A stretch of 53,777 nt of DNA from a bacterium (lineage in GTDB: Bacteria > Patescibacteriota > Minisyncoccia > Minisyncoccales > UBA10102): assembly GCA_027624865.1 (NCBI GenBank), contig JAQBTT010000001.1:1-53777 (forward strand), given 5' to 3'. The position numbers were made by a program, and so were the translations under genes. This document shows, piece after piece, positions 384 through 40,039 of the stretch. Under the pieces are notes generated by a model that was not told the DNA's origin, ran no database searches, and worked only from the letters and a program-made list of their open reading frames with translations. The first letter of the stretch is position 1. Each line of letters opens with the position of its first letter.

Positions 384-492
384 CTTTACAGAGGAAGCAC
401 TTTCTTTTAGTCGTATATGGCGTATAATATATTGTAAGCGTGCTTTAATAGCTCGTTGACAATGTAAGTATAAAATCTGCGAGGAGGTTCTT

Positions 493-5918: not shown

Positions 5919-5946
5919 TTGACAAAAATACTAGCCTTACTACAAT
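5919..5946 (+). promoter_or_regulatory. Sigma70-like promoter of ftsZ, predicted to give a leaderless mRNA
   Basis: TTGACA (5919-5924), 16-nt spacer, TACAAT (5941-5946), then 6 nt to ATG 5953. Confidence 0.6.
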
Positions 5947-5952
5947 GGAGGA

Positions 5953-7320
5953 ATGGCAAAGAAAACTCAAAAGGCAAAAGCAAAACCAAAGAAGCCGCAA
6001 AAAAAAAGTAGGGTAAAAGTGACTCCTCGCGCTGTAAAAAAGCGTGCTGTGGTTTCCGCTAAAGCAAAGCAGTTAGCTTTGAGCGCAGAGGGAGCACAAA
6101 AGACTAAGATTCGAGTTATTGGCGTTGGAGGGGGAGGTTCTTCTATCGTAGCAGAAATTGCACGCTTGGTAGGAAGAGTGGATTTTGTTTCTGCAAATAC
6201 AGACATGCAAGCGCAAAAGAATCTTTCGCGTAATATTCGAGCATTTGCATTTGGACAAGAGCTTACTCATGGCCTTGGATGTGGCATGGATGTTGCCTTG
6301 GGAGAGGCCGGGGCAAAAGCAGAAAAGGATAGGATAAAGAAATTAGTGGAAGGTCAAGATGTTTGTATCTTGATAGCTTCTTTGGGGGGAGGGACTGGAT
6401 CTGGTGCAATCTCAGTATTTGCGGAAGCAGCAAAAGAAGCAAAGTGTTTGACGCTAGGTATTTTTACGATGCCATTTGCTTTTGAGGGACAAAAAAGAAA
6501 GGAAATAGCAGATGTTGCCCTGCAAAAAGTCATCCCCTTACTCAACGTGTATAGTGTGATTCCAAATGAAAATATCTTTCGCATCATTGATCAAAAAACC
6601 CCATTTCGCAGTGCATTTTCAGCGGTGAATAAAAGATTAGCTGAGACCCTGGAAGGTTTTATTGATACCTTAGCTCTTCCAGGCCTCATCAATATTGATT
6701 TTGCTGACTTACGAACCTTACTGGAAGGAAGAGGGAAGCTTGCTTACTTAAACACTGCCCTGATGCAGGGCGAACCTAAAGCTCAACTTGCCTTAAAGGA
6801 GGTACTGAGTAACCCTCTTTATGATTATGGGATTCGCGGAGCTGATCGCATGGTGTTTAATATAACTGGGGATAAAGCAATGAAAATGCATGAGGTTGCT
6901 GATATCTCAAAAAATATCTCTTCTTTTAATATAAAAGCTCGCATTATTTTTGGTATTTCTTTTCAACCAGAGTACAAGGATAAGCTTCGCATCGCTCTTT
7001 TTGCTGTTGGGTGCGAACAAAAGGCTGAGAAAAAACTAGAGAAAATTGTAGAAAAGCCAGATGGGAAAAAGAAAAGCAGTGTAAAAAAGTCTGCAATTAA
7101 AAAACCTACTACAAAGAAGCCAGAGAAAAAAACTGTAAAGAAAGATACTCCTCCTCCAGCTTTGAAAGCTCCTCGTCCTCCATCTTTTAAGATGAGGAGG
7201 AATGCTTTGGACTTAAAAAAGGCTCAGGATAGAGAAATAAAAGATATGGAGAAGCAAGATGGGCAGTGGGACATCCCTTCTTTCCTTCGTAATAATAGAT
7301 ATCAAGGAGACGCTCTATAG
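5953..7320 (+). CDS. ftsZ: Cell-division GTPase FtsZ with Lys-rich N- and C-terminal extensions
   Basis: GVGGGGS and GGGTGSG tubulin signature, and a C-terminal DIPSFLR peptide. About 50 aa of a KKxxK-rich N-terminal extension precede the core. Confidence 0.9.
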   Translation: MAKKTQKAKAKPKKPQKKSRVKVTPRAVKKRAVVSAKAKQLALSAEGAQKTKIRVIGVGGGGSSIVAEIARLVGRVDFVSANTDMQAQKNLSRNIRAFAFGQELTHGLGCGMDVALGEAGAKAEKDRIKKLVEGQDVCILIASLGGGTGSGAISVFAEAAKEAKCLTLGIFTMPFAFEGQKRKEIADVALQKVIPLLNVYSVIPNENIFRIIDQKTPFRSAFSAVNKRLAETLEGFIDTLALPGLINIDFADLRTLLEGRGKLAYLNTALMQGEPKAQLALKEVLSNPLYDYGIRGADRMVFNITGDKAMKMHEVADISKNISSFNIKARIIFGISFQPEYKDKLRIALFAVGCEQKAEKKLEKIVEKPDGKKKSSVKKSAIKKPTTKKPEKKTVKKDTPPPALKAPRPPSFKMRRNALDLKKAQDREIKDMEKQDGQWDIPSFLRNNRYQGDAL

Positions 7321-12315: not shown

Positions 12316-12400
12316 ACCCCTTTCTTTGTTCAATGGAGTATATGCTTGTACTCTTGCATGTATCTTGTAATCTACGTAATCTAATAATCTAAAACTTGCA

Positions 12401-12434
12401 CAAAACTACAATACTATATAGTATTGTAGTTTTG
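12401..12434. repeat. Perfect 34-bp palindrome
   Basis: caaaactacaatactat|atagtattgtagttttg is its own reverse complement. It lies 6 nt upstream of a consensus -35. Confidence 0.9.
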
Positions 12435-12440
12435 GTGCGC

Positions 12441-12470
12441 TTGACATTTTCTTGAAAGATGGTATATAAT
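12441..12470 (+). promoter_or_regulatory. Near-consensus sigma70 promoter
   Basis: TTGACA (12441-12446), 18-nt spacer, TATAAT (12465-12470). Confidence 0.6.
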
Positions 12471-12471
12471 A

Positions 12472-12502
12472 TTGTAGAATCTAGGGTTTGTAGAATCTAG
12501 GG
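12472..12502 (+). promoter_or_regulatory. Tandem direct repeat (2 x ttgtagaatctaggg, 16-nt period) immediately downstream of the -10. Operator-like.
   Basis: Exact 15-nt unit at 12472-12486 and again at 12488-12502. Confidence 0.5.
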
Positions 12503-12539
12503 CCTACATTATATCCTGAAGCAGGACATTTGGATCACA

Positions 12540-12818
12540 ATGAGAGTGGAGGAAATTATGCAAGAGATTTGGAGGAAAGTGGCAGCCAGCAACATCCAGC
12601 GGGTTCTTGACGCGGAAGGGCATGAAGTCTATTCCGAGAAAGACGCGAAGGAGCATTTGATCCAGGAGCGGCTCGACGAGATTTCGGAAGAGCTGCGGAT
12701 GGCTCGCGAGGTGGAGGCAGATTGCCTTTGCGAATTGTTCAGAGAACGCGAACTTAGAAGAGCTCGTCAACATATAGGTGAGCTCGAAGCCGAGAGGGCG
12801 GAGCTGGAAGGTCAGTAG
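12540..12818 (+). CDS. Hypothetical 92-aa charged, coiled-coil-like protein
   Basis: The ORF sits between a consensus promoter and a clean terminator. The protein is Glu/Arg-rich and helical, with no recognisable family. The locus is locally more GC-rich than its neighbours. Confidence 0.5.
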   Translation: MRVEEIMQEIWRKVAASNIQRVLDAEGHEVYSEKDAKEHLIQERLDEISEELRMAREVEADCLCELFRERELRRARQHIGELEAERAELEGQ

Positions 12819-12846
12819 GTCAAAAAAGCTCAACAAGCTCGGCTCA

Positions 12847-12883
12847 CCCCAATGAAAATGGATAATCATTGGGGTTTTGTTTT
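12847..12883 (+). terminator. Rho-independent terminator
   Basis: ccccaatga...tcattgggg stem followed by ttttgtttt. Confidence 0.7.
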
Positions 12884-12910
12884 GAGGGAGTTTTGGCGTA
12901 TACTAAAACT

Positions 12911-20206: not shown

Positions 20207-20295
20207 ATCAGTACCCTTACGAGGGTACGTTTAGAGAGTTTGATCCTAGCTCAGGATGAACGCTGGCGACGTGGATAAGGCATGCAAGTCGAACG

Positions 20296-20418
20296 TGTCA
20301 GTGTTACGCACTGACCGCAGACACACGCAGACTTGACGCGGAAATACGCAGAAAAATAGTTTCTGCGTGATTCTGCGTTTGTTCTGCGTAGTTCCGCGGC
20401 CAATGCGTAGCATTGGCA
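20296..20418 (+). repeat. 123-nt hairpin-cluster insertion module, copy 1, replacing 16S helix 6 / V1
   Basis: About 85% identical by eye to 31201-31321 in the 23S. The 3' 57 nt match at 55/57. Confidence 0.85.
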
Positions 20419-21929
20419 AGTGGCAAACGAGTTAGTAACACGTGGATACGTACCCTAAAGACGGGCACAACCAGCCGAAAGGTTGGCTAATTCCCGATAG
20501 CCCCCTCTTTCGCTTTTTGTTTCACAAAAAGCTTCAGAGGGCAAGGCCGTAAGGCTTCGCCCTCCGTAGCTCTGTGTGGAACGCAGAGCGAAGGAGGGGT
20601 AAAGAAGCAATTCGCTTTAGGAGCGGTCCGCGGCCTATCAGCTTGTTGGTGAGGTAAAAGCTCACCAAGGCTATGACGGGTAGGGGAGGTGAGAGCCTGT
20701 TCCCCAACGCGGGTACTGAGATACGGACCTGACACCTACGGGTGGCCGCAGTCGAGGATATTGGACAATGGGCGCAAGCCTGATCCAGCGACGTCGCGTG
20801 TGGGATGACGGCCTTCGGGTTGTAAACCACTTTTATAGAGGAAGAAGGCGCATCTCACTGTCGTTCGATGCGAAAGATACTTGTTGATATTTGTTTCTCG
20901 CTTTGCTCGAAACGATACTCGTTGATATTCATTGCAATGAGTATCGCGAGCGTAGCGAGCAAGTATCAATAAATATCTATGAATATTAGCACCGAGCGAG
21001 AGTGAGGTGCGTCTGACGGTACTCTATGAATAAGGGGGTGCTAACTCTGTGCCAGCAGCAGCGGTAATACAGAGCCCCCAAGCGTTATCCGGATTTATTG
21101 GGCGTAAAGCGTCTGTAGCCGGTTTGGCAAGTCTCTTGTTAAATACCAAGGGCTCAACCTTTGGAATGCAAGGGAAACTTTTAGACTAGAGGATGTTAGG
21201 GGCTGATGGAACTCTTAGTGGAGGGGTGGAATCCGTTGATATTAAGAGGAACACCGAAAGCGAAGGCATTCAGCTGGAACAATCCTGACGGTGAGAGACG
21301 AAAGCGTGGGGAGCAAAAAGGATTAGATACCCTTGTAGTCCACGCTGTAAACGATGGATACTAGCTATGTGAAGTGTCGACCCTTCACGTGGCGAAGCTA
21401 ACGCGTTAAGTATCCCGCCTGGGAAGTACGATCGCAAGATTAAAACTCAAAGGAATAGACGGGGGTCCACACAAGCGGTGGATCATGTGGCTTAATTCGT
21501 CAACAAACGAGGAACCTTACCAGGGTTTGACACCTACTGGAAAGCCTCCTGAAAGGGAAGCCTTCTCACAAGGACCAGTAGGCAGGTGTTGCACGGCCGT
21601 CGTCAGCATGTACCTTGAGGCGCTCCGTTAAATCGGGTAACATGCGCAACCCCTATCGCTTGTTTTATATGTCAAGCGAAACTGCCTGAGACAATCAGGA
21701 GGAAGGTGGGGATGACGCCAGGTCCGCGTGGCCCTTTGATATCCTGGGCTGCACACATGATACAATGGAGCCGACAATGGGACGCAATACAGTAATGTGG
21801 AGCAAATCCCTAAACGGCCCCTCAGTTCGGATTGAGGTCTGCAATTCGACCTCATGAAGCCGGAATCGCTAGTAATCGCGTATCAGCTATGGCGCGATGA
21901 ATATGTTCCTGGACCTTGTACTCACCGCC

Positions 21930-22798
21930 AAATAAAATGTGCCCGGCGGTTTACTTCACTAGCAGGTTAAAGTCCTGTCTTTGCAAAAGCAAAGTAGCCA
22001 AAAAATTAGCAGTCCTGGCTCGTAAGAGTCCAGGGTGGAGGGCTTGAGGCAAATAGCAGCCTATGACATAATGAATTTGAACGACTCCTGCGGGCGGTCT
22101 GAAGGAAGTTCAAGAATAATTCGTGCATAAGGATGCTAGGAAATGTGAAATAAATTACCCGGGGAGATCCTAGAAATGAGAGTCTTTTCTGATAATTTCT
22201 AGGAAGTCAGCTAGTGCCATAGTATCTTGCTTGGCAAGAGAAGGGCCTAACCTAAAAAGCATATGCTTTCAAAAGATTACATTGTTGGATTAACCGATGG
22301 GGAGGGGAGTTTTACTGCGTACCTCAGGCCTCCTCGCAAAGAACATGGCTCAAAGAGCTATCGCGTGGAATGTCATTACTATTTGAAGCTTCGAGAAGAT
22401 GACTTAGCCTTGTTAAAAAAGCTAAAGCAATTCTTTAAAGTAGGACTGGTATCATTTCAGAGAGATAGACGATTGAATCATCACGATTGCTATCGGTATG
22501 AAACAACGAATCTAAAGGACATTTGTGAAGTTATCATTCCATTTTTTGATGCAAATCCCTTGCAAGGGAATAAGATGCGAGACTATCGCTTATTCAAGAA
22601 GATTGTAAAAGCAGTAGTAAAGAAAGAGCATCGAACCAATGAAGGATTTTTGAAGATTAAGAAATGGAAAGAAGAAATGCATACTTTTGGGGCTCGCTGA
22701 ATACGGGAAATCCGTATGTTCAGCCTCGATATGGAAAGTCGAGGGCTCCTATTTACTAGGAGCTGGGAACGAGACATTTGACTCAAATGAACTCACTC
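21930..22798 (+). mobile_element. Intervening sequence / intron in the 16S decoding centre (between E. coli C1403 and C1404 equivalents) carrying a LAGLIDADG ORF
   Basis: Exon ttgtactcaccgcc | 869 nt | cgtcaagtc restores the universal CACCGCCCGUCA. The intron class was not established. Confidence 0.75.
22263..22700 (+). CDS. LAGLIDADG homing endonuclease (single-motif, I-CreI-like size)
   Basis: 145 aa with YIVGLTDGEGSF, located inside the 16S intervening sequence. Confidence 0.85.
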   Translation: MLSKDYIVGLTDGEGSFTAYLRPPRKEHGSKSYRVECHYYLKLREDDLALLKKLKQFFKVGLVSFQRDRRLNHHDCYRYETTNLKDICEVIIPFFDANPLQGNKMRDYRLFKKIVKAVVKKEHRTNEGFLKIKKWKEEMHTFGAR

Positions 22799-23101
22799 CG
22801 TCAAGTCAAGCGAGCCGGGAATACCCGAAACTCCACCTCGCGTGGATCTAAGGTAGGCTCGGTGAGAGGGACTAAGTCGTAACAAGGCACCGGTAGGGGA
22901 ACCTGTCGGTGGATCACATCATTTTTGAAAGTGTCGTCCAGATAAGCCCCGCCCTTTCTACGTCGCTCTACTGTCAATCGACGAGTATGGCGATGTGGAA
23001 AGGTATTCTTCGGAAATCATATTTCTTGAGGAAAGAGCGGGGTGATCTGCGGTGTAACTAGAGCCGTTAATTCTAGTTCTAGACATTTATGTTTAGTTTG
23101 T

Positions 23102-23833: not shown

Positions 23834-23845
23834 CAAATTCAGAAG

Positions 23846-23867
23846 ATCGCCAAGCAGGTGATTTTTT
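23846..23867 (+). terminator. Terminator after tRNA-Ala
   Basis: atcgcc-aagca-ggtgat followed by a T6 run. Confidence 0.55.
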
Positions 23868-23881
23868 GATAAAGTTAAGAC

Positions 23882-25165
23882 ATGCAAAAAGAAACACAAT
23901 GGGATGTTGTGGTTATTGGCGGTGGGGCATCTGGAATGATTGCTGCTGGTCGCGCTGGCGAGCGTGGCCGTAGTGTTTTACTGCTTGAGAAAAATCCTAC
24001 CTTAGGTAAAAAACTCCTTATCACGGGTGGCGGGAGATGTAACGTTACAAACAACAAGCCTGCAGTGCCAGTGATGCTCAAGGAATATAAGGGGAGTGAT
24101 AAGTTTCTCTTTTCTGCGTTTGTGCAATTTGGAGTAAAAGAAACACTGCAGTTTTTTAGCGATAGGGGAATGAAGATAAAGGAAGAGGCAGAGGGAAGAA
24201 TGTTTCCTGTATCAAATAAGGCAAAGTCAGTATGGGATGTGCTTATGCAATATGTGAAGAAAGGAGGGGTGAAGGTACAGACAAAGGCGCACGTTACAGG
24301 AATTACCTATGATACATCTTTACAGCAGTATGTTATAGCTCTTGCTGATGCAACTGAAGTGCATGCAAAAGCGTGCATTATTGCAACTGGCGGGATATCG
24401 CATCCTGAAACTGGTTCAACTGGTGAAGGGTTTTTGTGGCTTAAAAAATGTGGGCATGTGATAATTGAAAATGATTTAGCGCTTGTACCAATTGTACTAA
24501 GGGATGTATGGGCAAAGAAGCTAGCTGGGGTAACGCTCAATAATATTAAGCTCACTACATTTAAAAATGGAGTGAAGCAAAAGGCGTGCAAAGGGAAATT
24601 ACTTTTTACGCATGTTGGCATTAGTGGTCCTACGGTTTTAAATATGAGCAAAGAAATAGGAGAGCTTCTTTCGGAGAAAGAAGGGGCAGAATATATCAAA
24701 AAGGAAAAGATAAGTGAAGTTACAATTATGCTGGATTTATTCCCAACTCTTGATAGCGGTGTGCTTGGAAAGAAACTTCAGGCGCTTTTGACTGAAAGCA
24801 GTAACAAAAAGATAAAGAATGTGTTGTCTCCATTTATTTCTTCTACTCTTGTTGGTGTAGTGCTTATGCTCAGCAATGTGAATGGTGAAACACCAAGTCA
24901 TAGCGTACGCGCAGGAGAGCGAAAGGCGCTTACCTCTTTACTAAAAGCCATGCCCTTATCTGTTGCAGGGCTCCTTGGGAAGGATAAGGCAATAGTATCT
25001 TCAGGGGGCGTGATGCTTTCGCAAGTCAATTTCAAAACAATGCAGTCCCGCGTTCTGCCCCAACTCTACTTAATAGGTGACGTATTAAATATTGATCGCC
25101 CTTCTGGAGGATATAGTTTGCAATTATGCTGGACCACAGGCTATATTGCAGGGAGTAACTGCTAG
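23882..25165 (+). CDS. HI0933/BaiN-like FAD-dependent flavoprotein
   Basis: WDVVVIGGGASGMIAAGRA dinucleotide fold and LLITGGGRCNVTN, which is diagnostic of the HI0933 family. Confidence 0.8.
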   Translation: MQKETQWDVVVIGGGASGMIAAGRAGERGRSVLLLEKNPTLGKKLLITGGGRCNVTNNKPAVPVMLKEYKGSDKFLFSAFVQFGVKETLQFFSDRGMKIKEEAEGRMFPVSNKAKSVWDVLMQYVKKGGVKVQTKAHVTGITYDTSLQQYVIALADATEVHAKACIIATGGISHPETGSTGEGFLWLKKCGHVIIENDLALVPIVLRDVWAKKLAGVTLNNIKLTTFKNGVKQKACKGKLLFTHVGISGPTVLNMSKEIGELLSEKEGAEYIKKEKISEVTIMLDLFPTLDSGVLGKKLQALLTESSNKKIKNVLSPFISSTLVGVVLMLSNVNGETPSHSVRAGERKALTSLLKAMPLSVAGLLGKDKAIVSSGGVMLSQVNFKTMQSRVLPQLYLIGDVLNIDRPSGGYSLQLCWTTGYIAGSNC

Positions 25166-25209
25166 TATGGAGTGAGGGTGTATTATGAAAGATAAAAATA
25201 TTGTATAAT

Positions 25210-25989
25210 ATGAACATGCCAGAAAAGAAAAAAAGAATTCTTCTTATAGAAGATGAGAGGACCATTGCCAATCTTATTGAATTAAGACTCAAGCGCTCTG
25301 GATATGAGGTAGAAGTTATATACGATGGAATAAAGGGATTGAAGACCATTTTAGAGTCCCCCCCAGATCTTGTCCTTTTAGATATGTTGCTTTCTGGTTT
25401 GAGTGGTTTTGATATTTTAAAGACGTTAAAAGAGAAGAATCTTTTGCCCAACTTGCCTGTTATCATTATTTCAAACTCTGCCCAACCCGTGCAGTTAAAG
25501 CGTGCAGTAGATTTGGGGGCAAGGGGGTACTTAATAAAGGTAAACTTTAGTCCAGAGGAAGTGGTAGAAAAGGTAGAAGCGGTATTTAAAGAGGGCATAA
25601 AACAAGATTCTTTAAGTGAGAGCAATGTTCTTTTAGTGGAAGATGAGAAGTTTCTTGCCGATGCTATTGAAAGAACATTTACTCAAAAACAGTATAAAGT
25701 TTTGCAAGCTACAAATGCCAGAGAGGCAAGAAACATACTTGGTGAGGAAAAGGTCGATGTAATACTCCTGGATATTATTCTTCCTGATATTGACGGATTT
25801 CAGTTCTTGGAGGAATTGAAGAAAGACGACAAAGTTAAAGGTATCCCTGTGATTATTATCTCAAACCTTGGGCAAAAAGAAGAGATTGAGAAGGGGAAAA
25901 AGATGGGAGCGATTGATTACATTATAAAATCAGATACAATTCCAAGTGAAATTCTAGAAAAGGTTGAGAGTATACTTAAAAGTAATTAA
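25210..25989 (+). CDS. Response regulator with two receiver (REC) domains and no output domain
   Basis: Two REC units (LLIEDE..LLDMLL..YLIK and LLVEDE..LLDIILP..YIIK). The start is ATG 25210 or 25216, and TATAAT lies at 25204-25209. Confidence 0.8.
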   Translation: MNMPEKKKRILLIEDERTIANLIELRLKRSGYEVEVIYDGIKGLKTILESPPDLVLLDMLLSGLSGFDILKTLKEKNLLPNLPVIIISNSAQPVQLKRAVDLGARGYLIKVNFSPEEVVEKVEAVFKEGIKQDSLSESNVLLVEDEKFLADAIERTFTQKQYKVLQATNAREARNILGEEKVDVILLDIILPDIDGFQFLEELKKDDKVKGIPVIIISNLGQKEEIEKGKKMGAIDYIIKSDTIPSEILEKVESILKSN

Positions 25990-26004
25990 TATATATAAAA
26001 TACT

Positions 26005-27204
26005 ATGGCAATACAAGCTGGAGTTGGACAAGGTTCACAAAAGGATCCCTATGAGGCAGGATTTGAGGCGTGTCAAGCGGCACTTGATAAATTAGAAGGA
26101 GAGAAAGCAGACTTGGTTATTGTATTTTCCTCGGTTGCGCTTGACCAAAAAGAGGTTATTCGTGGTGTGCGCAATGTAAGTGGTGACGCTCTGCTTGTTG
26201 GGTGTAGTGATGCTGGGAGCATTACAAGTTCGGGCCCCGCTAAGAATGCAGTTGGGGTGATGGCAATTTCTTCAGATAAGCTGCACTTCTATACTGGCCT
26301 TGGCAAAGGAGTGAGCGATGGAGCACGGGAAGCTGGGCAAGCTCTTGCAAAAGAAATTCAAGAAAAAGCAAAAGAACCCTTGAAAACATTTTTAATGTTC
26401 CCAGATGTACTTACGGGAAATGGAGCAGATATTGTGCGAGGGGTATTAGATGTTTTGGGGGAGCATTTCCCATTGCTGGGAGGAGCTGCTGGTGACGATT
26501 TTCTTTTTAAAAAAACCTATCAGTACAAAGATGGCGAGGTTGCATCAGGCGCTGTTGCTGGGGTTGGTATCTCTGGAGATTTTGTAATGGGAGCTGGAGT
26601 ACGTCATGGATGGATGCCCATTGGTAGCTCAATGACTGTAACAAAGTCAAAAGGTTCTGTGGTGTATGAGCTGGACGGGAAACCTGCTGCTAGAATCTAT
26701 GAAGACTATTTTGGAGAACGAGCAGAAGATTTAAAAAGTGAACCTTTAGCGCGCTTGGCAATAACATATCCTTTAGGGATTAAGGTGAGTGATCTTGATG
26801 AATATTTAATTCGAGACCCTATCACGGTGGACGAAAATGGGGCTATCACGTGTGCAGCTGAGATCCCAGAAGGGTCAGAGATTAGGCTGATGATTGGGAG
26901 TAAGGATAAGGCGATAGAGGCCGCTCAAGATGCAGCAGAAAAGCTCATGCGAGATTTTAAAGAGAAGAATGCAACACCAAAATTTGTTTTGATGTTTAAC
27001 TGTATTGCACGAGAAAAATTGTTTGCACAAAAGGCAAATGATGAGATTCAAGCGATAATGAACATTATTGGCAAAGACGTTCCATTATTGGGATTCTACA
27101 CGTACGGGGAAATAGCCCCCATAAAAGGAGAGGTGCACGACATGGAGAAGGTTGTTTCAAAATTTTACAATGAAACCGTTGTGATGCTTGCGATAGGAGA
27201 ATGA
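26005..27204 (+). CDS. FIST-domain (FIST_N + FIST_C) sensory protein
   Basis: 399 aa, cytoplasmic. The layout (DLVIVFSS..GCSDAG..GDF.. and the C-terminal LGFYTYGEIAP) is typical of FIST proteins. Confidence 0.7.
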   Translation: MAIQAGVGQGSQKDPYEAGFEACQAALDKLEGEKADLVIVFSSVALDQKEVIRGVRNVSGDALLVGCSDAGSITSSGPAKNAVGVMAISSDKLHFYTGLGKGVSDGAREAGQALAKEIQEKAKEPLKTFLMFPDVLTGNGADIVRGVLDVLGEHFPLLGGAAGDDFLFKKTYQYKDGEVASGAVAGVGISGDFVMGAGVRHGWMPIGSSMTVTKSKGSVVYELDGKPAARIYEDYFGERAEDLKSEPLARLAITYPLGIKVSDLDEYLIRDPITVDENGAITCAAEIPEGSEIRLMIGSKDKAIEAAQDAAEKLMRDFKEKNATPKFVLMFNCIAREKLFAQKANDEIQAIMNIIGKDVPLLGFYTYGEIAPIKGEVHDMEKVVSKFYNETVVMLAIGE

Positions 27205-28163
27205 ATTCTTTCGTTATTCTTGGAACTATTGCGCTTGCTGGTATTGTTTTTGCTTTTATCTTTACGCAGGGCGCGAGAAAGCAACTTCTAAACTTGCAAA
27301 AAAAGAACGTACGTTTTGAAAAACTCCTTTTGCAAAAGGAGCGTGAGCTTGCTCAAGCCAATGGAATACTGAAGGAACGTAGCAAAGAGTCCAATGAAGT
27401 AGCAAGGGTACTTGTAAGAAGAGATTTGGAGTTAACAGAGACAAACGAGCGTTTACGTGAGCTTGATTCAGTGAAATCAGAATTTGTGTCTGTTGCAGCT
27501 CACCAGCTAAGAACTCCCTTAACAGGTATTAAGTGGACCCTCAATGCTCTGCTTACTGGTGAGGTTGGTACGCTGGATAAGGACCAAAAAAAACTTGTTA
27601 CAGATGGTCTTGCTGCAACGTATAGATTAATAGAACTTATCAATGACTTATTGGATACTGCGCGTATTGAGGAAGGGAGATTTGGGTTTAACTTTAAGAT
27701 GCTTTCCTTAGCTCCAATACTTAAGCAGTCGATTGTGAACTATGCAGTGATTGCAAAGAAGAAAGGCATACAGCTTATACTCAAGTTGCCAGAAGCAAAG
27801 CTCCCTTTGCTAAAACTTGACGCAGAAAAGATTGGAATTGTACTAGATAACCTTATTGATAACGCTATAAAGTATACAATTCCTGGGGGCAAGATAACAG
27901 TGCGAGCTACACTTCAAAAAGAGCATGTTGTGCTAGAGGTGGAAGATACAGGAATTGGGGTTCCAAAAGAGCAAGTGCATCGCGTCTTTACTAAATTTTT
28001 TAGGGCAGTAAATGCTCAGCTTGCAGAGACCTCAGGAACCGGACTTGGACTATACGTATCCCATAACATTGTAGAGCACCACAGAGGAACTCTTTCTTTT
28101 ACAAGTAGTGAGGGGAAAGGGAGTACATTTGTTGTTTCTCTTCCTTTAGTTAATCAAAGATAA
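27201..28163 (+). CDS. Sensor histidine kinase (TM, coiled coil, HisKA, HATPase_c)
   Basis: H-box SEFVSVAAHQLRTPLT, N-box DNLIDNAIKYT and G-box GTGLGL. The start overlaps the FIST stop (ATGA). Confidence 0.85.
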   Translation: MNSFVILGTIALAGIVFAFIFTQGARKQLLNLQKKNVRFEKLLLQKERELAQANGILKERSKESNEVARVLVRRDLELTETNERLRELDSVKSEFVSVAAHQLRTPLTGIKWTLNALLTGEVGTLDKDQKKLVTDGLAATYRLIELINDLLDTARIEEGRFGFNFKMLSLAPILKQSIVNYAVIAKKKGIQLILKLPEAKLPLLKLDAEKIGIVLDNLIDNAIKYTIPGGKITVRATLQKEHVVLEVEDTGIGVPKEQVHRVFTKFFRAVNAQLAETSGTGLGLYVSHNIVEHHRGTLSFTSSEGKGSTFVVSLPLVNQR

Positions 28164-28181
28164 TACATTTACATAGTAGTT

Positions 28182-28448
28182 ATGCTAAAAACACTTACCT
28201 TCCATCCATCTCGCATCGGGTGCCCATCAATTCCTGGCACCATGAAAGGGATTGTAATTTCAATTCCCGGAGTAAAAGACGTAGAAGTAAGGTATGAAGA
28301 ACGTTCAATAGATGTTACTTTTGACGAAACGAAAACATCACCTGAGGAAATCACAAAGAAGATAGGAGAAGAGATGGGCTTGGCAATGGAAGTTACTAAG
28401 CATGGCTCAAAAAAAGAAGGGAACGTAGCACATACCTGTCCTATGTAA
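28182..28448 (+). CDS. Small HMA-like (ferredoxin-fold) protein with a degenerate metal site
   Basis: IPGVKDVEVRYEERSIDVTFD...EEITKKIGEEMG matches the HMA fold pattern, but the usual CxxC is replaced by GCPSIPGT. The C-terminus is HTCPM. Confidence 0.4.
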   Translation: MLKTLTFHPSRIGCPSIPGTMKGIVISIPGVKDVEVRYEERSIDVTFDETKTSPEEITKKIGEEMGLAMEVTKHGSKKEGNVAHTCPM

Positions 28449-28557
28449 TAGGGAGGGTACTTTTCCACAGGCGCTCTATTGCTCTGATTCTATCTTTGGT
28501 ATAATAATTGAACGCACAAAAGGTCGTTTTTAGCATAGTAAAGGTAAATATATTACA

Positions 28558-28764
28558 ATGATGCAAAGAAGCACAATAGGTTTGGTAGTCGGTATTCTTT
28601 TAGTTGTTGGTGGTCTAAACTGGGGATTGGTTGGACTCTTCAACATGGATGTTGTCGCTACCGTTTTTGGAGGAACTGCAGCCTTGGGTTCCAAGGTCGT
28701 ATATGTTCTTGTAGGGATTGCAGCCATATACAAGCTCGCCAAGATGGTGGGGATAATGAAGTAA
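28558..28764 (+). CDS. DUF378-family small membrane protein
   Basis: 68 aa with GGLNWGLVGLF and two TM helices. Confidence 0.75.
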   Translation: MMQRSTIGLVVGILLVVGGLNWGLVGLFNMDVVATVFGGTAALGSKVVYVLVGIAAIYKLAKMVGIMK

Positions 28765-28828
28765 TTGATACTTCTTTCTGCCCAGCCCTCTTTAAAGAGG
28801 GCTGGGTCAAAGAGATATTTATTCTATA

Positions 28829-29251
28829 ATGCATTCATTCTTTAATTTTTTAAATCGTATTTTCCCAGCACAAGTTGTATTTGCGCACTGCGATATTCCT
28901 TGTGGTATTTATACTCCAGAGCCAGCACAAACTGCAGCTTTGACTGTAATTCGCATGATAGAGAAGCTTCAGGAAGCAGAGGCAGGGGATGCTCACAACA
29001 TAGCAAGGTTCACTCAAGCAAAAGAAGAGCATGCACAAAAATGCAAACAAGAACTCCTTATTCTTTGGACTGATTACTTTAAAGAAGAGCATCTTTTGGT
29101 GTTCCCAAATCTCCACGATATTTTTTGGAAAGCAACAAAGCTGTGTTCCAAGAATAAGCAGGAAGTAAGTATGGAGGCTGCTCAGGCCTTGAAGCAGGCA
29201 GTAGCTGAGATAGCAGAGATGTTCCACAAAGTAGAGGCAGCAAAGAAATGA
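28829..29251 (+). CDS. sodN: Nickel superoxide dismutase precursor
   Basis: A leader peptide followed by HCDIPCGIY (the Ni-hook His-Cys-x-x-Pro-Cys-Gly-x-Tyr) and LWTDYFK. Confidence 0.85.
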   Translation: MHSFFNFLNRIFPAQVVFAHCDIPCGIYTPEPAQTAALTVIRMIEKLQEAEAGDAHNIARFTQAKEEHAQKCKQELLILWTDYFKEEHLLVFPNLHDIFWKATKLCSKNKQEVSMEAAQALKQAVAEIAEMFHKVEAAKK

Positions 29252-29309
29252 TGAGACTGCTTGAGTTGCTTGAAACCGGGTTTCAAGCAGTCAGAGGCAG
29301 CGTTATACT

Positions 29310-29627
29310 ATGATTTCCTATTTTAAAGTGAAGGGCCAGAGCATGGAGCCCTGGGTAAAAGAAGGGGACTTTGTTTTGGTAGATAGGTTGTCCTATCTAT
29401 TTTTAAGACCAAAGGTAGGACATGTAGCATTAATAAGGCATCCAGAGAAGCCAAACTTGCTAATTATAAAGCGCATTGCGCGAAAAGAGGATAATAGGTA
29501 TTGGGTAGAGGGGGACTCTTCTTTTAATAGTACAGATAGTCGGCATTTTGGGTGGCTCAAAAGAGAGCTTTTAGTGGGAAAAGTTATCCACAGGACAGGC
29601 TCCTTTGCTCTTGGTATACTATCGTAA
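29310..29627 (+). CDS. sodX: S26-family peptidase, NiSOD maturation protease
   Basis: VKGQSMEP (Ser nucleophile), IIKRIA (Lys) and GDSSFNSTDSRHFG, located directly downstream of sodN. Confidence 0.75.
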   Translation: MISYFKVKGQSMEPWVKEGDFVLVDRLSYLFLRPKVGHVALIRHPEKPNLLIIKRIARKEDNRYWVEGDSSFNSTDSRHFGWLKRELLVGKVIHRTGSFALGILS

Positions 29628-29683
29628 TATAAGAAAAGGTCGGAAAAGGTAGTTTCCATAATTAAAGAATACACAAAAAATAT

Positions 29684-30361
29684 ATGGTTCTCGATTTATA
29701 CGTGGTTACCATTCAAGCTCTGCAAGGTCTTTGGGAAGGGTTCATTGGATTTTTGCCAGAATTGATTGGAGCGCTCATCATCTTTGTTATTGGATGGTTT
29801 ATCTCTGTTGGAGTAGGCCGTTTGGTAGCTGACATTTTAAAGAGAATTAAATTCAATCAAGTTTTTGAGCGAGGAAACTGGAAGAGTGCCCTAGAAAAAG
29901 CGGACATTAAGATGGATCCTTCAGGATTCATAGGCGCTATCTTCAAATGGGTGTTTGTTATCGTGTTCCTTAGAGTGACCGTGGAGGTGCTGGGCTTAAC
30001 TCAGCTTACTACGTTCATTGAGAGTATTCTCGCATATTTGCCTAATGTACTGGTTGCCTCGTTAATTTTCGTAGTAGCTGTGATTGTTGCAGATATCGTA
30101 GAGAAAGTTTTGAGAGCTGCAGTGGAGTCTGCTCAGGTAGGGCAGGCACACATGGTTGGTGTAATTGTCAGGTGGTCCATTTGGATCTTTGCTGCAATTG
30201 CAATCTTAACTCAGCTTGGCGTTACCCCAATTCTTTGGCAGACTTTGTTTACCGGTTTGGTAGCATTGATTGTTGTGGCTGGTGGTTTGGCATTTGGCTT
30301 GGGAGGAAAGGAAGTAGCAGGCCAATGGCTACAAGACATGAGTAGGAAACTAAAAGGATAG
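29684..30361 (+). CDS. Integral membrane protein with conserved-TM-helix repeats (MscS-N-terminal-like)
   Basis: 225 aa with 4-5 TM helices and a repeated G.LP.L.GAL.I...GW motif. Confidence 0.5.
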   Translation: MVLDLYVVTIQALQGLWEGFIGFLPELIGALIIFVIGWFISVGVGRLVADILKRIKFNQVFERGNWKSALEKADIKMDPSGFIGAIFKWVFVIVFLRVTVEVLGLTQLTTFIESILAYLPNVLVASLIFVVAVIVADIVEKVLRAAVESAQVGQAHMVGVIVRWSIWIFAAIAILTQLGVTPILWQTLFTGLVALIVVAGGLAFGLGGKEVAGQWLQDMSRKLKG

Positions 30362-30381
30362 TTTTTCTACTTTCTCTTCTG

Positions 30382-30412
30382 AAACTACCCCGCTTTTGCG
30401 GGGTAGTTTTTT
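30382..30412 (+). terminator. Strong rho-independent terminator
   Basis: aaactaccccgc-tttt-gcggggtagttt followed by ttt. Confidence 0.85.
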
Positions 30413-30476
30413 ACTCCTTAAAATAAGGTGGAAAACCTCTTGTTTTGAGAGGAATATATGGGATTTTTTGGATGAG

Positions 30477-30505
30477 TTGACATTGATTGAGCCATAGCGT
30501 ATACT
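30477..30505 (+). promoter_or_regulatory. Promoter of the 23S-5S transcription unit
   Basis: TTGACA (30477-30482), 17-nt spacer, TATACT (30500-30505). Confidence 0.65.
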
Positions 30506-30624
30506 TAAAATACGACATGAGAAATAGCCAAAAACTTTTGCAATCACAAAGCGGCTGATAAAACCTGATGGTTTAATGTGTCAGTAGGATGCCGCCACGT
30601 AAGCGGTTTTTTGTTCCTCATGTT

Positions 30625-30699
30625 GGGTCCAAGACAACTACTTGTCTTGGATGGGTGATTTAGTGAACCCTCCGTGGTGAGCGTAAAAAATCACCCAGG
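30625..30699 (+). repeat. Dispersed repeat family, copy B (aagacaa hairpin plus the gaaccctccgtggtgagcg core)
   Basis: ccaagacaactacttgtcttgg followed by tgatttagtgaaccctccgtggtgagcgtaaaaaatcaccc. This is the same architecture as 23591-23660. Confidence 0.8.
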
Positions 30700-30712
30700 T
30701 TCTTTGTCAATT

Positions 30713-30738
30713 TAATAATGGGTATAATCTGCTAGCAA
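30713..30738 (+). promoter_or_regulatory. 5' strand of the 23S processing stem
   Basis: The reverse complement of taataatgggtataatctgctagcaa matches 35620-35644 at 25/26 positions. Confidence 0.8.
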
Positions 30739-30971
30739 CAGGAATCAATTGTAATTATAGGCAGGTAGTGGATGCCTTGGGATGTAAAGGCGATGAAGGA
30801 CGTAGCTTAGCTGCGATAAGCCTCGGGGAGCAGTGTAGCATGCTTTGATCCGGGGATTTCCGAATGGGGAAACCTGGTTTATGGAAACATAGATCGTCTG
30901 TCAGCAATGACAGAAGCGAACCCGCTGAAGTGAAACATCTCAGTAAGCGGAGGAAAAGAGAACGTAAGTAT

Positions 30972-31156
30972 CCTTGTGCTTCGCACAAGGAATTCCTAAT
31001 TAACCTAATTCCTAATTAACCTAATCAATAACCAATGTCTTAATACTAATGACCAAAAACTTATAGAGTACTATATTGGTTTTTAGAAATTAGGATCTGG
31101 GATTTCTTTAGAAATTAGAAATTAGATATTAGAAATTTCTCGTGCGAAGCACGAGG
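30972..31156 (+). repeat. 185-nt AT-rich insertion in 23S domain I bounded by inverted GC hairpins (IVS- or MITE-like)
   Basis: ccttgtgcttcgcacaagg (30972-30990) against the reverse complement of ctcgtgcgaagcacgagg (31139-31156) gives 17/19. TAT flanks both ends. The interior is made of stuttered words (aattcctaattaacc x2, ttagaaatta x3). Confidence 0.75.
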
Positions 31157-31200
31157 TATATTCCCTTAGTAGCGGCGAGCGAAATGGGAGGAGCCTAAAC

Positions 31201-31321
31201 TGTCAGTGCTTTGCATTGACCGCAGAAGGACGCGGACTTGACGCGGAACTGCGCGGAAATATTTTCTGCGTGATTCTGCGTTTGGTCTGCGTAGTTCCGC
31301 GGCCAATGCGGAGCATTGGCA
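31201..31321 (+). repeat. 121-nt hairpin-cluster insertion module, copy 2, in 23S domain I
   Basis: Homologous to 20296-20418 in the 16S: tgtcagtg...cattgaccgcag...ttctgcgtgattctgcgtttg.tctgcgtagttccgcggccaatgcg.agcattggca. Confidence 0.85.
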
Positions 31322-33072
31322 GGGTTGTAAGACTATAGCGTCGGGAGTTGTTTTGAAACGTTGCGCGATTTTGGAGATCTCAATAGTGGGGTCCCCGAAA
31401 TTGCGAAGCGATTTTGAAGGAATTTCTGAGGGAGAATATTTAGATAAAGTGGTTAGAAAAACGCCTCTGGAACGGGCGGCCAAAGAGGGTAATAGCCCCG
31501 TATTCGAAAACTGCCTTTATGCTCCTTGCTATTTTTCTTGAGTACCTCGGGACACGAATATCCCGTGGGAAACATCCGGGACTATCCGGAAAGGCTAAAT
31601 ACTTTACATCACCGATAGTGAACGAGTACCGTGAGGGAAAGGTGAAAAGCAGCCCGGTGAGGGCGATGAAATAGAACCTGAAACTATCTTGCCTACAACG
31701 AATCGGAGGGGAGTTTACTCCCTGACGGTGTGCTTTTTGCAGAACGAGCCAACGAGTGTTCCTAACAGCTTTGTCTAAGCGCCTTTGGCGTGCAGGCACA
31801 GCGAAAGCGAGTGTGAATAGCGCGTTTGGCGTCCGCAAGGACGCTATGAGTTGTTGGGAACGACCCGAAGCCAAGCGAGCTTGCCATGAGCAGGGTGAAG
31901 GATGACGAAAGTCGTCTGGAGGCCCGAACCCGTAGATCGTTCAACGTCTTGGGATGACTTGTGGTAAGAAGTGAAAAGCTAATCGAGCTTGGTAATAGCT
32001 GGTTCTCTCCGAAATAGCTTTAGGGCTAGCGTCGCAAAGCAAGTCTTGGAGGTAGAGCTCTGAAAAGAGCGCTCTTGGAGCAATCCAGGCGCTTTTATCA
32101 AACTTCGAATGCCAAGACTCTAGATGCGGCAGTCAGAACGTGGGGGCTAAGCTCCGCGCTCAAAAGGGAAACAGCCCAGATCTTCATCTAAGGTCCCTAA
32201 ATCAAGCTAAGTGCAAAATAAGGAAGTGAGGCTCCAAAGATAGCTAGGAGGTTCGCTTAGAAGCAGCTATCCTTTAAAAATAGCGTAATAGCTTACTAGC
32301 TAAGGAGTTTTGCGCCGCAAATTTATCGGGGCTAAGCTTGGTACCGAAGATAAGGCCCAGCTCTCTTTCAAGAGGGCTGGGGGTAGGAGAGCGTCCTCTT
32401 TGCAATGAAGGTGAATCGTGAGGTTTGCTGGAGCGGAGAGGAGTGAGAATGTTGGCATGAGTAACCACAATGCAAGTGAAATCCTTGCACACCGAAAACC
32501 TAAGGTTTCCTTGGCAATGACAATCACCCAAGGGTTAGGCGGCCCTAAGTGGTGCACCAAATGGTGTATTGCGATGGACAGAAGGTTAATATTCCTTCCC
32601 CTTGTCATATGCTTTTTCAGATGACGGAGTGTAGTAACTCTTGTGAATTATTGGATTTTTGTCCTTGGCGTGAGGGGTAACCCAAGCGCAGAGGCGACTC
32701 GCTGTTATGGCGGGGAGAAGAGTGAGCACGCTTCCCGGAAAAGTTCTGAAAGTTTGAGTATGATGAGTCCGTACCGTAAACCGACACAGGTGGGTTGGTA
32801 TCAATGTACTAAGGTGAACGGGTGAAAGCTCCTGAAGGAACTCGGCAAATTAGTGGTCGTAACTTCGGGATAAGACCTCCCTGTAGCAATACAGGGCGCA
32901 GCAAACGTATTCCTGGCGACTGTTTACCAAAAACACAGGTCCCTGCATAACTCGAAAGAGGAAGTATAGGGGCTGACGCCTGACCAGTGCTGGAGTGTTA
33001 AGCCTGCAGGTGGCTTTGAGCAATCAAAGCTGCTTAGTGGGTGAAGCCCCAGTGAACGTCCGCGGTAACTAT

Positions 33073-33810
33073 AAACTCACGGGTTGTAGTTATAAAATCT
33101 GGCCATATGCGGGAACATCTCGACAAAAATCTTAGACGTACTCGTAAGGAATTCGTCTCCTTGCAGTAACAATCGATCTAAGAGAGAAAATCCGCAGGAA
33201 AGACCATTTGTGAGTCACAAAAAAACATGAGAAGTCAATCATGGGAAAAGCAAATCCCCAGCCACATTGGGTGGTATCTTGCAGGATTTGCAGATGGTGA
33301 AGGAAGCTTCAACATCTCCCTTAAGAGAGATATAGAGTATCGACTCGGTTGGCATATTGAACCAAGTTTCAATGTATCCCAACGAGAAAGAACAATTCTT
33401 GCTTTGTTCAAACAACATCTTGGAGTAGGAACACTTCGTCAACGAAAAGATGGAGTAGTATACTACGAAGTGCGCAATTATCGTGCACTGCAAGATAAAG
33501 TTATTCCTTTCTTTGAGAAATTTACTTTTCTTTCTTCAACAAAAAAGAGAAATTTCTCGCTCTTCCGTAAAATTATTGTTCTTATGAATGAAGGGCAACA
33601 TACAAATGCGGAAGGTTTGAAGAAAATCCTTTTGATTAGAGAACAAATTAATAAAGGTCATGGAAGAACAAGGAAGTATTCATTAGACGATTATTTAGAC
33701 TCACAAGCGGAATCCTCAGAGACTATACGCCAGACCCTGAGAGAGCCGAAAGGCGAATCGAAGGGATGATATAGTCCGATCTCATAGGTGACTATGAGCT
33801 AACATGTATG
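33073..33810 (+). mobile_element. Group I intron at the site equivalent to E. coli 23S U1917 (helix 69 loop), carrying a LAGLIDADG ORF
   Basis: The 5' exon ends in U (gtaactat) and the intron ends in G. The internal guide GUAGUU pairs with exon AACUAU with a U.G at the splice site. The core elements aatctggccatatgcggg and gatatagtcc are present. Joining the exons restores GUAACUAU|AACCGUG, so helix 69 (cgcgg/ccgtg) can form. Confidence 0.75.
33227..33769 (+). CDS. LAGLIDADG homing endonuclease (single-motif)
   Basis: 180 aa with WYLAGFADGEGSF. The ORF 3' end runs into the intron core (its stop overlaps gatatagtcc). Confidence 0.85.
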   Translation: MRSQSWEKQIPSHIGWYLAGFADGEGSFNISLKRDIEYRLGWHIEPSFNVSQRERTILALFKQHLGVGTLRQRKDGVVYYEVRNYRALQDKVIPFFEKFTFLSSTKKRNFSLFRKIIVLMNEGQHTNAEGLKKILLIREQINKGHGRTRKYSLDDYLDSQAESSETIRQTLREPKGESKG

Positions 33811-33824
33811 AACCGTGTTAAAGT

Positions 33825-34097
33825 AGGAAATCTGCTTTAGTAAAATCTGGCTATATGCTGGAAAATCTGAGTATCCGACACTACTTGAAAGAGTGAAAAT
33901 GTGTTCGGTGCAGACAATCAGCAGGAAACCAAAATCATAAAGTGTGATGAGTAGGATCCTCAGAGACTATACGCCAGACCCCGACATTACGTCGGGGAAG
34001 ATATAGTCCGAACTTCATGGCGACATGAAGAGTGAAGTAGAAATACTTCACCGCCATGCCTCTTTTTATGAGGCTTGGTCTGAAAGTAACATGATTG
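33825..34097 (+). mobile_element. ORF-less group I intron at the site equivalent to E. coli 23S U1931
   Basis: The 5' exon ends in U (ttaaagt) and the intron ends in G (atgattg). The guide GCUUUA pairs with exon UAAAGU with a U.G wobble. The core aatctggctatatgctgg, cagacaatcagcagg and gatatagtcc is homologous to the neighbouring intron. Joining the exons gives AAAGU|AGCGUAAUCCCUUG. Confidence 0.7.
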
Positions 34098-34420
34098 AGC
34101 GTAATCCCTTGCCTGGTAAGTTCAGGCCTGCATGAAAGGCGTAACGACTGGGAAACTGTCTCCAGGAGCTGCCCGGTGAAAATGCAATACCGGTAAAGAT
34201 GCCGGTTACCTGCGGCTAGACGGAAAGACCCCGGGAGCTTTACTATAGCTTCTTATTGTCTTGTCATTTTGCCTGCGTAGAATAGCAGGGAGGCTTTGAT
34301 GCCCGTTTTTCGGAATGGGTGGAGCCAACAGTGAAATACCTGTCTGGTAGGAAGATAAGACTAATTCCGCGTATGCGGATGACAGTGGGAGGTGGGTAGT
34401 TTTAGTGGGGCGCTAGCCTT

Positions 34421-34729
34421 AACACAATGGGGCCATCTAAGAGTAATTTTAGATGCCAAACTCGACTAATATGCTGGAATATCTGGAGTACTTAAGGAGT
34501 AATCCAACAAGTGTGGCCGTAAGATACGGCTACCAGACAATCAGCAGGGAAGGTATAATAGAGGTACCACCCTCAACGACTACACGTCGAGCCCGAACTA
34601 TTGAAAGAATGAATGTTCGGTGGTGATATAGTCTGAACTCTATGGCGACATAGAGACTCGGTAATGTTCACACATTGCGCCAGTGAAACAATCCGAGACT
34701 TAAGTGCTTACTTAAGGTTAACAGAATTG
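34421..34729 (+). mobile_element. ORF-less group I intron just 3' of the P-loop (about E. coli 2257-2263). Boundaries are uncertain by up to ~8 nt.
   Basis: It interrupts ggggcg..|..cctaaagagtagcggagg. It shares the core ctcgactaatatgctgg, cagacaatcagcaggg and gatatagtct with the other introns. An alternative boundary pair is 34415/34724. Confidence 0.6.
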
Positions 34730-35060
34730 CCTAAAGAGTAGCGGAGGCGTTTAAAGGTCAGCTAAGTCCGGATGGAAATCGGACCGGTCGTGTAAAGGCG
34801 CAAGCTGGCTTTACTGCGAGACGGATATGTCGAGCAGTTGCGAAAGCAGAACTTAGTGAACCGATACGCCGTAATAGAAGGCGTAAAGATCATCAACCAA
34901 AAGTTACCCCGGGGATAACAGGCTGGTAGTGCCCACGAGTCCATATCTACGGCACTGTTCGGCACCTCGATGTCGGCTCACCTTATCCTGGGGGTGGAGA
35001 AGCTCCCAAGGGTTTGGCTGTTCGCCAATTAAAAAGGTACGCGAGCTGGGTTCAGACCGT

Positions 35061-35328
35061 CAATAATGAACCATGACATTGAGTAACACACGGCGGCTTT
35101 CATAAGTAATTATGATCGCAAACCGACTCATATCGGTGGATTCCTATAAACTTTTTCGCAACCTGGAAGAGTAGGAGAATACCGAGGCAACCTGTATGTA
35201 TATTATATATGGGAGCTGTAGAGACTTGATCTATGATCAGACGGGAGAGAATATTTTTCCGTAACACGTCGGCATCCTTAGTAAAGGATGGTGGTATAGT
35301 CCAAACATTTGGTAACAAGTGAGTATTG
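35061..35328 (+). mobile_element. ORF-less group I intron at the site equivalent to E. coli 23S U2593 (peptidyl-transferase centre)
   Basis: Exon gggttcagaccgt | 268 nt ending in G | cgtgagacaggt restores GAACGU|CGUGAGACAG. The core aaaccgactcatatcggtgg and ggtatagtcc is present. Confidence 0.7.
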
Positions 35329-35619
35329 CGTGAGACAGGTTGGTCCCTATCTACCGCAGGCGTCAAGTCTTGAGGAGATTCGTCTCTAGTACGAGAGGAC
35401 CGAGATGAACTAACCTCTGGTGTACCAGTTGTCCTGCCAAGGGCATCGCTGGGTAGCTATGTTGGGAAGGGATAAGCGCTGAAAGCATATAAGCGCGAAG
35501 CCTACTCCAAGATGAGGACTTTAAGATCCCTCGAAGATCACGAGGTTGATAGGCTCTAGGTGAAAGCCCGGTGACGGGTTCAGCCGAGGAGTACTAATGA
35601 TCTACATACGATTATTTCT

Positions 35620-39995: not shown

Positions 39996-40039
39996 GAGTA
40001 AATTTGGATTAAGATAGATGGACGACAAGGGAGGCTTTT

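Follow-up and report, generated by a model that had tools for sequence, protein, structure and literature searches.

Does the 16S rRNA of this bacterium still carry a sequence able to pair with Shine-Dalgarno (SD) motifs and, if it does not, by which signals are its genes started? The question arises from a DNA stretch of 53,777 nucleotides (hereafter the window), whose 16S rRNA gene appears to end with CAUCA at the place where the anti-SD core CCUCC is expected. An earlier reading made from the letters alone (hereafter the sequence-only reading) had interpreted this as a mutated anti-SD core, and had proposed that a mode of initiation other than SD pairing dominates. We followed up these proposals with alignments to covariance models, comparison with relatives and statistics of gene starts.

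The 3' end of a split 16S rRNA gene

The 16S rRNA gene is interrupted. Its first exon, located on the forward strand at 20228-21929 (Rfam RF00177, 1255 bits), extends from the 5' end to about E. coli C1403, contains insertions of 102, 76 and 154 nt which are typical of the lineage, and ends with ...CACCGCC. Its boundary was set by means of the 16S rRNA gene of a close relative (L121; GCA_022563395.1, a 671-kb contig), which has no intron and aligns over positions 1-1533. An intervening sequence of 869 nt (21930-22798, forward strand) follows in the decoding-centre region (~C1403/C1404) and is missing at the same site in L121; the decoding-centre sequence ...CCTTGTACTCACCGCC breaks off at 21929 and picks up as CGTCAAGTCAAGC... 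at 22799. Because this sequence splits the gene, the end given by the whole-window Rfam match, which places the 16S rRNA gene at 20228-21961 and claims the full model, is wrong. The intervening sequence itself bears an open reading frame (22263-22700) for a 145-aa LAGLIDADG_1 homing endonuclease (Pfam PF00961, E 5e-20). An Rfam search gave no group I match to it, and a group II D1-D4 match at 22167-22246 stays below threshold (33.2 bits vs a gathering score of 35). In L127, a more distant relative, an intervening sequence occupies the identical site, with exon 2 restarting at CCGUCA and a 145-aa LAGLIDADG_1 frame upstream of it.

The second exon (22799-22924, forward strand; cmscan) contributes the 3' strand to helix 44, contains helix 45 at 22888-22911, and finishes with the single-stranded 3' tail. 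When the segment 22780-22990 was searched with the covariance model, the alignment of 22780-22924 ran to position 1533, where the bacterial SSU model ends (79.3 bits, E 3e-23), and it recovered what RF00177 has in this part, from the 3' strand of helix 44 through helix 45 to the single-stranded terminal positions. The tail directly adjoins helix 45, which is intact and has a GGAA loop, and the true 3' end of the gene is thus at 22912-22924, about 960 nt beyond the automatic Rfam end; on this point the manual placement of the sequence-only reading was superior to the automatic call. The sequence of 22911-22924 is GGATCACATCATTT, and the final 13 columns of the alignment, assigned with top posterior probability, read GAUCACAUCAUUU here vs GAUcACCUCCUUu in the model. 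The equivalent of the anti-SD core (22917-22921, forward strand) is therefore CAUCA in place of CCUCC, due to C1536A at 22918 and C1539A at 22921. Both substitutions had been read correctly by eye, as had the homology of the tail to the E. coli 16S rRNA 3' end, which the SSU-model alignment places at E. coli 1530-1542. The gene remains a member of the 16S rRNA family in spite of lacking the CCUCC core of the RF00177 tail at 22917-22921, and no CCTCC occurs in the approximately 90 nt 3' of the tail that were inspected.

The mature 16S rRNA would end near ...CAUCAUUU. The pairing between leader and trailer given by duplex prediction is long but messy (-53.6 kcal/mol) and defines no end. The 19 nt that follow the tail (22925-22943, TTGAAAGTGTCGTCCAGAT) are near-identical in the window, L121 and three further contigs (L124-L126), with L121 differing at 2 positions, after which the spacers diverge; they are probably part of a pre-rRNA processing stem.

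Comparing the tails of relatives, which the sequence-only reading had suggested as a check, bore it out. Syntenic relatives were located through homologues of the uS2 gene, found some 2.3 kb before the 16S rRNA gene begins. L121, whose uS2 is 78% identical to that of the window, has a 16S rRNA ending with GGATCACATCATTTTT, identical to the window tail, and the same tail, with GAUCACAUCAUUU as its last 13 positions, was found in L124-L126, which were obtained by scanning JGI metagenomes for the pattern of a 16S 3' domain with CACATCA at its end. The tail is thus the same in four assemblies besides that of the window. More distant relatives carry other tails, none of them CCUCC: the last 13 positions read GAUCACUACAUUU in L127 and L135 (Wildermuthbacteria-like, uS2 identity ~60%), and UAAUUUUUCUUUU in L137 (GCA_030688685.1, labelled Yanofskybacteria, uS2 identity 60%). 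The replacements of CCUCC in the window and these relatives are CAUCA, CUACA and a U-rich tail, and CCUCC is absent from every relative with a readable tail (L121, L124-L127, L135 and L137); the loci L122, L123, L128-L133, L136 and L138 stop short of the 16S 3' end and do not enter this comparison. A separate probe for 16S tails, the pattern GGNGAACCTGNNNNNGGATCACATC, was abandoned: all of its 119 matches were non-16S, mostly in Alphaproteobacteria records, and none had the GTCGTAAC/GTAACAAGG context upstream.

With an intron and several insertions in the gene, and no more than one window of the genome in view, it was plausible to ask whether the tail is an artefact or belongs to a non-functional copy: the sequence might have been assembled or read wrongly, the gene might be an rRNA pseudogene, or it might belong to one of two operons of which the other has a canonical tail. 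We consider this highly improbable. The tail is not an assembly error, because it is identical in five independent assemblies; moreover, the match to the SSU model is strong, helix 45 is intact, synteny with relatives is conserved, and every readable tail among the relatives is without CCUCC. CPR genomes usually have one rRNA operon, and this general knowledge also counts against a second copy. The occurrence of three different tails at a site which is near-invariant in bacteria indicates relaxed selection after SD-dependent initiation was lost. Degenerate tails in the distant relatives point to a loss of the anti-SD which would be clade-wide, and the fact that the tails of sister clades differ argues for drift, rather than for a conserved new pairing, as the probable course of events.

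SD motifs upstream of genes

If the tail no longer reads SD motifs, these should be scarce before genes, as the sequence-only reading had claimed. We assembled 72 gene starts, namely 42 from the window, 11 from the same genome past the window end (L120) and 19 from L121, and passed the first 44 annotated genes of E. coli K-12 through the identical pipeline as a positive control. The motif GGAG or GAGG at -17 to -4 precedes 12 of the 72 genes (17%) vs 14.4% upstream of internal ATGs (p 0.6), a comparison drawn from about 62 kb of this genome and about 20 kb per relative, in syntenic loci whose genes are therefore not independent samples. In E. coli the same test gave 22/44 (50%) vs 2.5% (p 5e-20). 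Duplex energies led to the same result: the mean energy of the -20 to -3 region paired to the canonical tail was -3.56 kcal/mol in the 72 genes, as compared to -4.05 at internal controls, while the E. coli genes reached -5.53 vs -3.99 kcal/mol (p 2e-4). As the E. coli control was positive, the method is able to detect SD use at such a sample size, and none was detected in the 72 genes. The scarcity claimed earlier thus holds in the sense that there is no enrichment over internal ATGs. In the three loci of more distant relatives (L127, L135 and L137), GGAG or GAGG precedes 4 of 52 genes.

SD-like words are frequent within coding regions, GGAG or GAGG being found in 14% of the 14-nt windows upstream of internal ATGs vs 2.5% in E. 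coli. This could reflect either a lack of selection against them or a purine-rich coding strand (G 25%, C 18%).

One might assume that the tail and the mRNAs changed together, giving an altered-specificity pair, for example UGAUG with CAUCA. In principle CAUCAU could pair with AUGAUG, and ATGAT, meaning a second codon for Ile, is indeed found at 9 of 68 true starts vs 10 of 286 in-frame internal Met codons (p 0.004). Upstream regions, however, do not contain the expected words: TGATG, ATGAT, GTGAT and TGTGA occur in 0/72 of them and GATGT in 1/72, so there is no compensating motif. With the mutated tail, the duplex energy amounts to -2.05 in the 72 genes vs -2.36 at internal ATGs, and in a run with 70 genes it gave z = -0.8 against shuffles. 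Hybridisation to both tails, proposed by the sequence-only reading as a means of deciding the matter, has therefore been compared on a partial genome, and neither tail beats the controls in the 72 genes. Together with the differing tails of sister clades, these results make a co-evolved pair scarcely credible. The CAUCAU tail includes two CAU triplets that resemble anticodons, but the related idea of a pairing across the start codon was rejected, as true starts pair worse than internal ATGs.

Although enrichment is lacking overall, canonical motifs do persist in front of individual genes, and they are more numerous than the two that had been reported before. Those two are GAGGAGG (481-487, forward strand), separated by 5 nt from the GTG with which fabD starts (493-1431, GC 51% vs 42% on average), and GGGAGG (40029-40034, forward strand), at the same distance of 5 nt from the GTG that opens a GC-rich frame of 133 aa (40040-40441). 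To these must be added AAGGAGG (48063-48069, forward strand), 8 nt before the ATG of a POTRA (FtsQ-like) gene at 48078; GAGGTGA before an MBL-fold gene (2640-3464); GGAGGA abutting the ATG of ftsZ; and, in front of two genes located shortly after the window ends, AAGGAGGTGA (an HTH gene, L120:13556) and AGGAGGTG (pyrG).

Such motifs raise the possibility that a minority of genes still use SD-like elements through a partner other than the tail, or through a subpopulation of ribosomes, in which case SD use would be reduced and not lost. On one hand, the full GGAGG pentamer at -18 to -4 is mildly over-represented (5/72 vs 2.3%, p 0.035), an excess which is left unexplained if nothing reads the pentamer, and several motifs (AAGGAGGTGA, the one before pyrG and AAGGAGG before 48078) are perfect and ideally spaced. 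On the other hand, the shorter GGAG/GAGG words are not enriched, and the residual motifs are unable to pair with the actual tail (-0.1 to -5.5 kcal/mol, as opposed to -12 to -17.5 for the canonical one); for the motif before 48078 the values are -0.1 and -12.2 kcal/mol, respectively. Also the identity of the genes speaks against retained use: fabD, the MBL-fold gene and the 40040 frame have 51-52% GC vs a window coding average of 42%, two of them starting with GTG, and another frame with such a motif, at 12540, lies in an insertion that L121 does not have. We therefore find it improbable that SD use persists in this form, if somewhat less so than the two alternatives dealt with above. The three GC-rich SD-bearing genes among those checked, and the 12540 frame, fit recent acquisition from SD-using donors. 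Some SD-bearing genes may thus have been acquired recently and have kept the SD of the donor, an explanation that leaves out pyrG and the ftsQ-like gene, which have an SD motif yet native composition.

The insertion spans 12316-12910, that is 595 nt missing from L121, and no RNA family was found in this gap by Rfam search. It contains a small GC-rich frame of 92 aa (12540-12818), the second ATG of which is preceded by GGAGGA, a promoter with 12/12 consensus bases (TTGACA-18-TATAAT, 12441-12470), two direct repeats of TTGTAGAATCTAGGG directly after this promoter, and a palindrome at ~12399-12431.

Architecture of start sites

What, then, marks the starts? One signal is a -10-like hexamer, TANNNT, ending at -11 to -4, which is present at 28 of the 72 starts (39%; a few window starts were set by hand, and the one at 25216 was picked partly by its -10 spacing) vs 11% at internal controls (p 7e-9) and 2/44 (5%) in E. 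coli. The last base of these hexamers peaks at -4 to -13, and several of the upstream boxes are of the extended -10 type (TGGTAAGAT, TGGTACTAT and TGGTATACT). A scan for two-hexamer sigma-70 promoters gave no excess over shuffles (34 found vs 34.8 expected), and the promoter signal is thus carried by the -10 element and its placement. The start codon is ATG in 68 of 72 genes (94%), although the choice of start is partly set by gene calling, and position -1 is occupied by T in 53%, C in 24% and G in 3% of the 72 genes. Such a preference for a pyrimidine (77%) directly before ATG is the Y(-1)R(+1) signature of transcription starting at the A of ATG. In the distant relatives, ATG starts 51 of 52 genes, TANNNT precedes 15/52 and T stands at -1 in 31/52. 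These figures for the hexamer, the start codon and position -1 fit the proposal of the sequence-only reading that a different initiation mode dominates, as far as start-site sequences can tell. Among second codons, GCA and AAA are the commonest (68 ATG-initiated genes of the window, L120 and L121).

An example of a leaderless-type promoter is that of ftsZ (5919-5955, forward strand), where TTGACA-16-TACAAT, matching the consensus at 11/12 bases, is followed after 6 nt by the ATG at 5953. This architecture is kept in the L121 orthologue, with the 6 nt before ATG reading GGAGGA in the window and AGAAGA in L121. As these six bases vary while the promoter is kept, GGAGGA is to be seen as the promoter discriminator and not as an SD.

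It is also conceivable that initiation proceeds mainly on leadered mRNAs, whose A/U-rich and weakly structured upstream regions would be bound with the help of ribosomal protein bS1, as happens in Bacteroidota or cyanobacteria, leaderless mRNAs being a minority. This would agree with the A-rich positions -3 to -11 (42-49% A except at -10, vs 30% genome-wide), with AAATA-type k-mers being the most enriched upstream words, with the 61% of genes that have no TANNNT at -11 to -4, and with the large number of operon-internal genes. However, the most enriched words are A/T-rich and TATA-like, and they overlap the -10-like hexamers with their positional peak at -4 to -13; near-exclusive ATG and a pyrimidine at -1 are expected of starts at the 5' end of a transcript; and the textbook promoter of ftsZ is spaced exactly for a leaderless start. 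This alternative thus appears unlikely to us, but it deserves more weight than any of those considered in the preceding sections. At the same time, about 60% of genes are without a -10 box at the start, and leaderless initiation is therefore not the sole mode. Of 34 same-strand neighbours, 11 overlap or lie no more than 10 nt apart, which suits translational coupling.

The explanation that we favor, and hold to be probable, is that this is a genuine 16S tail of the Parcubacteria type, from a clade with a decayed anti-SD in which initiation would be SD-independent, using leaderless or short-leader mRNAs together with coupling. The change of CCUCC to CAUCA deprives the tail of the 5-bp SD helix, and the genes, which carry no SD above background, would be initiated independently of it. 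From the arrangement of start sites and neighbouring genes we infer the following mechanism. Promoter-proximal genes would probably give leaderless or very short-leader mRNAs, with the -10 box about 7 nt before AUG and the A of AUG as the likely transcription start, and direct binding of such mRNAs could occur by way of the start codon and initiator tRNA. Operon-internal genes would probably depend on termination-reinitiation coupling at overlapping or close stop and start codons, helped by A-rich upstream regions. Those canonical SD motifs that are still present, few in number, are perhaps leftovers in genes of recent acquisition. A bolder version, which we put forward tentatively and regard as possible, though less assured than the explanation just given, is that the clade has shifted almost wholly to initiation at 5'-terminal AUGs and coupling, so that the tail drifts and the remaining canonical SD motifs mark recent imports from organisms that use SD, possibly hosts. 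If this were true, genes acquired by horizontal transfer would be recognisable by their SD, and initiation in the clade would be the bacterial equivalent of that in nanoarchaea.

Known systems, lineage and the rRNA operon

Among named homologues, the best for FtsZ and uS2 belong to the 'Patescibacteria group', 'Candidatus Wildermuthbacteria', 'Candidatus Yanofskybacteria' and the 'Parcubacteria group', with the nearest named ones, from Wildermuthbacteria and Yanofskybacteria, showing about 60% uS2 identity. The insertions in the 16S rRNA gene, group I introns in the 23S rRNA gene and a second LAGLIDADG frame fit CPR bacteria. Judged by its best homologues and intron-rich rRNA genes, the organism is a Parcubacteria-type CPR bacterium. 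Ribosomal protein genes present in the approximately 62 kb covered are those for bL9, bL25, bL27, bL31 and uS2.

Bacteroidota keep an intact CCUCC, which is sequestered by ribosomal proteins. Our genome resembles them in its lack of SD enrichment and in its A-rich upstream regions, but it differs in that the core itself is mutated and no intact CCUCC is left.

The sequence-only reading held that loss of SD/anti-SD pairing is documented in only a few lineages. This understates what has been published, since such loss is already on record for Parcubacteria and other CPR groups (PMC9297842, PMC10783764). Tsurumaki et al. (2022, RNA 28:1041, PMC9297842) detected the anti-SD CCTCCT in only 48% of Parcubacteria, its absence overlapping with the uL1-lacking group. 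Our genome is like the anti-SD-less Parcubacteria described there in its CPR affiliation, the absence of CCTCCT from the 16S 3' end, its rRNA introns and insertions, and the clade-wide character that the loss seems to have; the accessible part of that paper gives motif absence only, to which the replacement sequences and the promoter-at-ATG signature are added here. The loss of the anti-SD is thus an instance of a published property of Parcubacteria. A second study defines a class iv of SD-scarce organisms without conserved CCUCC, with Cand. Wolfebacteria, Campbellbacteria, Absconditabacteria, Peregrinibacteria, the reduced endosymbionts Carsonella, Hodgkinia and Nasuia, haemoplasmas and Nanoarchaeia as members (PLoS One 2024, PMC10783764). 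On the partial genome covered, CCUCC is absent here as well as in close relatives and few genes pair at -20 to -2; like class iv, our genome has a mutated core and shares its variant with close relatives, and credible SD pairing is limited to a few percent of genes (PMC10783764). It is unlike the listed members in its lineage and tail sequence, and the statistics given here concern 72 genes and not a whole genome.

Similarities exist also to leaderless-rich Mycobacterium, Deinococcus and many archaea (GeneMarkS-2 leaderless classes, PMC6028130), where a -10 box at a fixed short distance, a strong preference for ATG and the lack of SD on such genes are found. Two of the hallmarks of these classes were tested, and both the -10 element at a short fixed distance and the strong AUG preference are present in our set. 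Leaderless-rich bacteria, e.g. Actinobacteria, nevertheless retain the anti-SD and use it on leadered genes, whereas here it is gone, as in Nanoarchaeia. We found no report in the searchable literature that links CPR anti-SD loss to a promoter-at-AUG architecture, which is weak evidence of novelty.

As the loss in this group was already published, no new field is opened, and what is added here is modest: the actual tail variants, evidence of drift, a leaderless-type start architecture, and SD-bearing genes that are in part GC-rich and possibly imported. Still, it provides sequence-level detail on a branch of ultra-small bacteria working without the classic docking of ribosome and mRNA, and on the look of their alternative start signals. 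There are practical consequences, too. Start scoring based on ribosome binding sites misleads gene calling in CPR metagenome bins, introns conceal the true 3' end of rRNA from automatic annotation tools, and the expression of CPR genes in standard hosts, or of standard constructs in CPR-derived systems, is affected.

The rRNA operon has further peculiarities. The 23S rRNA gene (30745-35617) has 4873 nt vs the 2925 positions of the model, and includes two group I introns (33799-34030 and 34410-34655) and a frame for a 180-aa LAGLIDADG_1 protein (33227-33769). The operon is split at 23834-30745: 16S, tRNA-Ile and tRNA-Ala are followed by about 7 kb of protein genes, and only then by 23S and 5S. 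The genes in this gap encode an HI0933-like flavoprotein, a double-REC response regulator, a FIST protein, a histidine kinase, a Ni-superoxide dismutase, an S26 peptidase and an MS-channel-like protein. The Ni-superoxide dismutase, S26 peptidase and MS-channel genes follow the 16S rRNA gene also in L121, L135 and L137, and in L127 the Ni-superoxide dismutase gene is seen before the locus ends.
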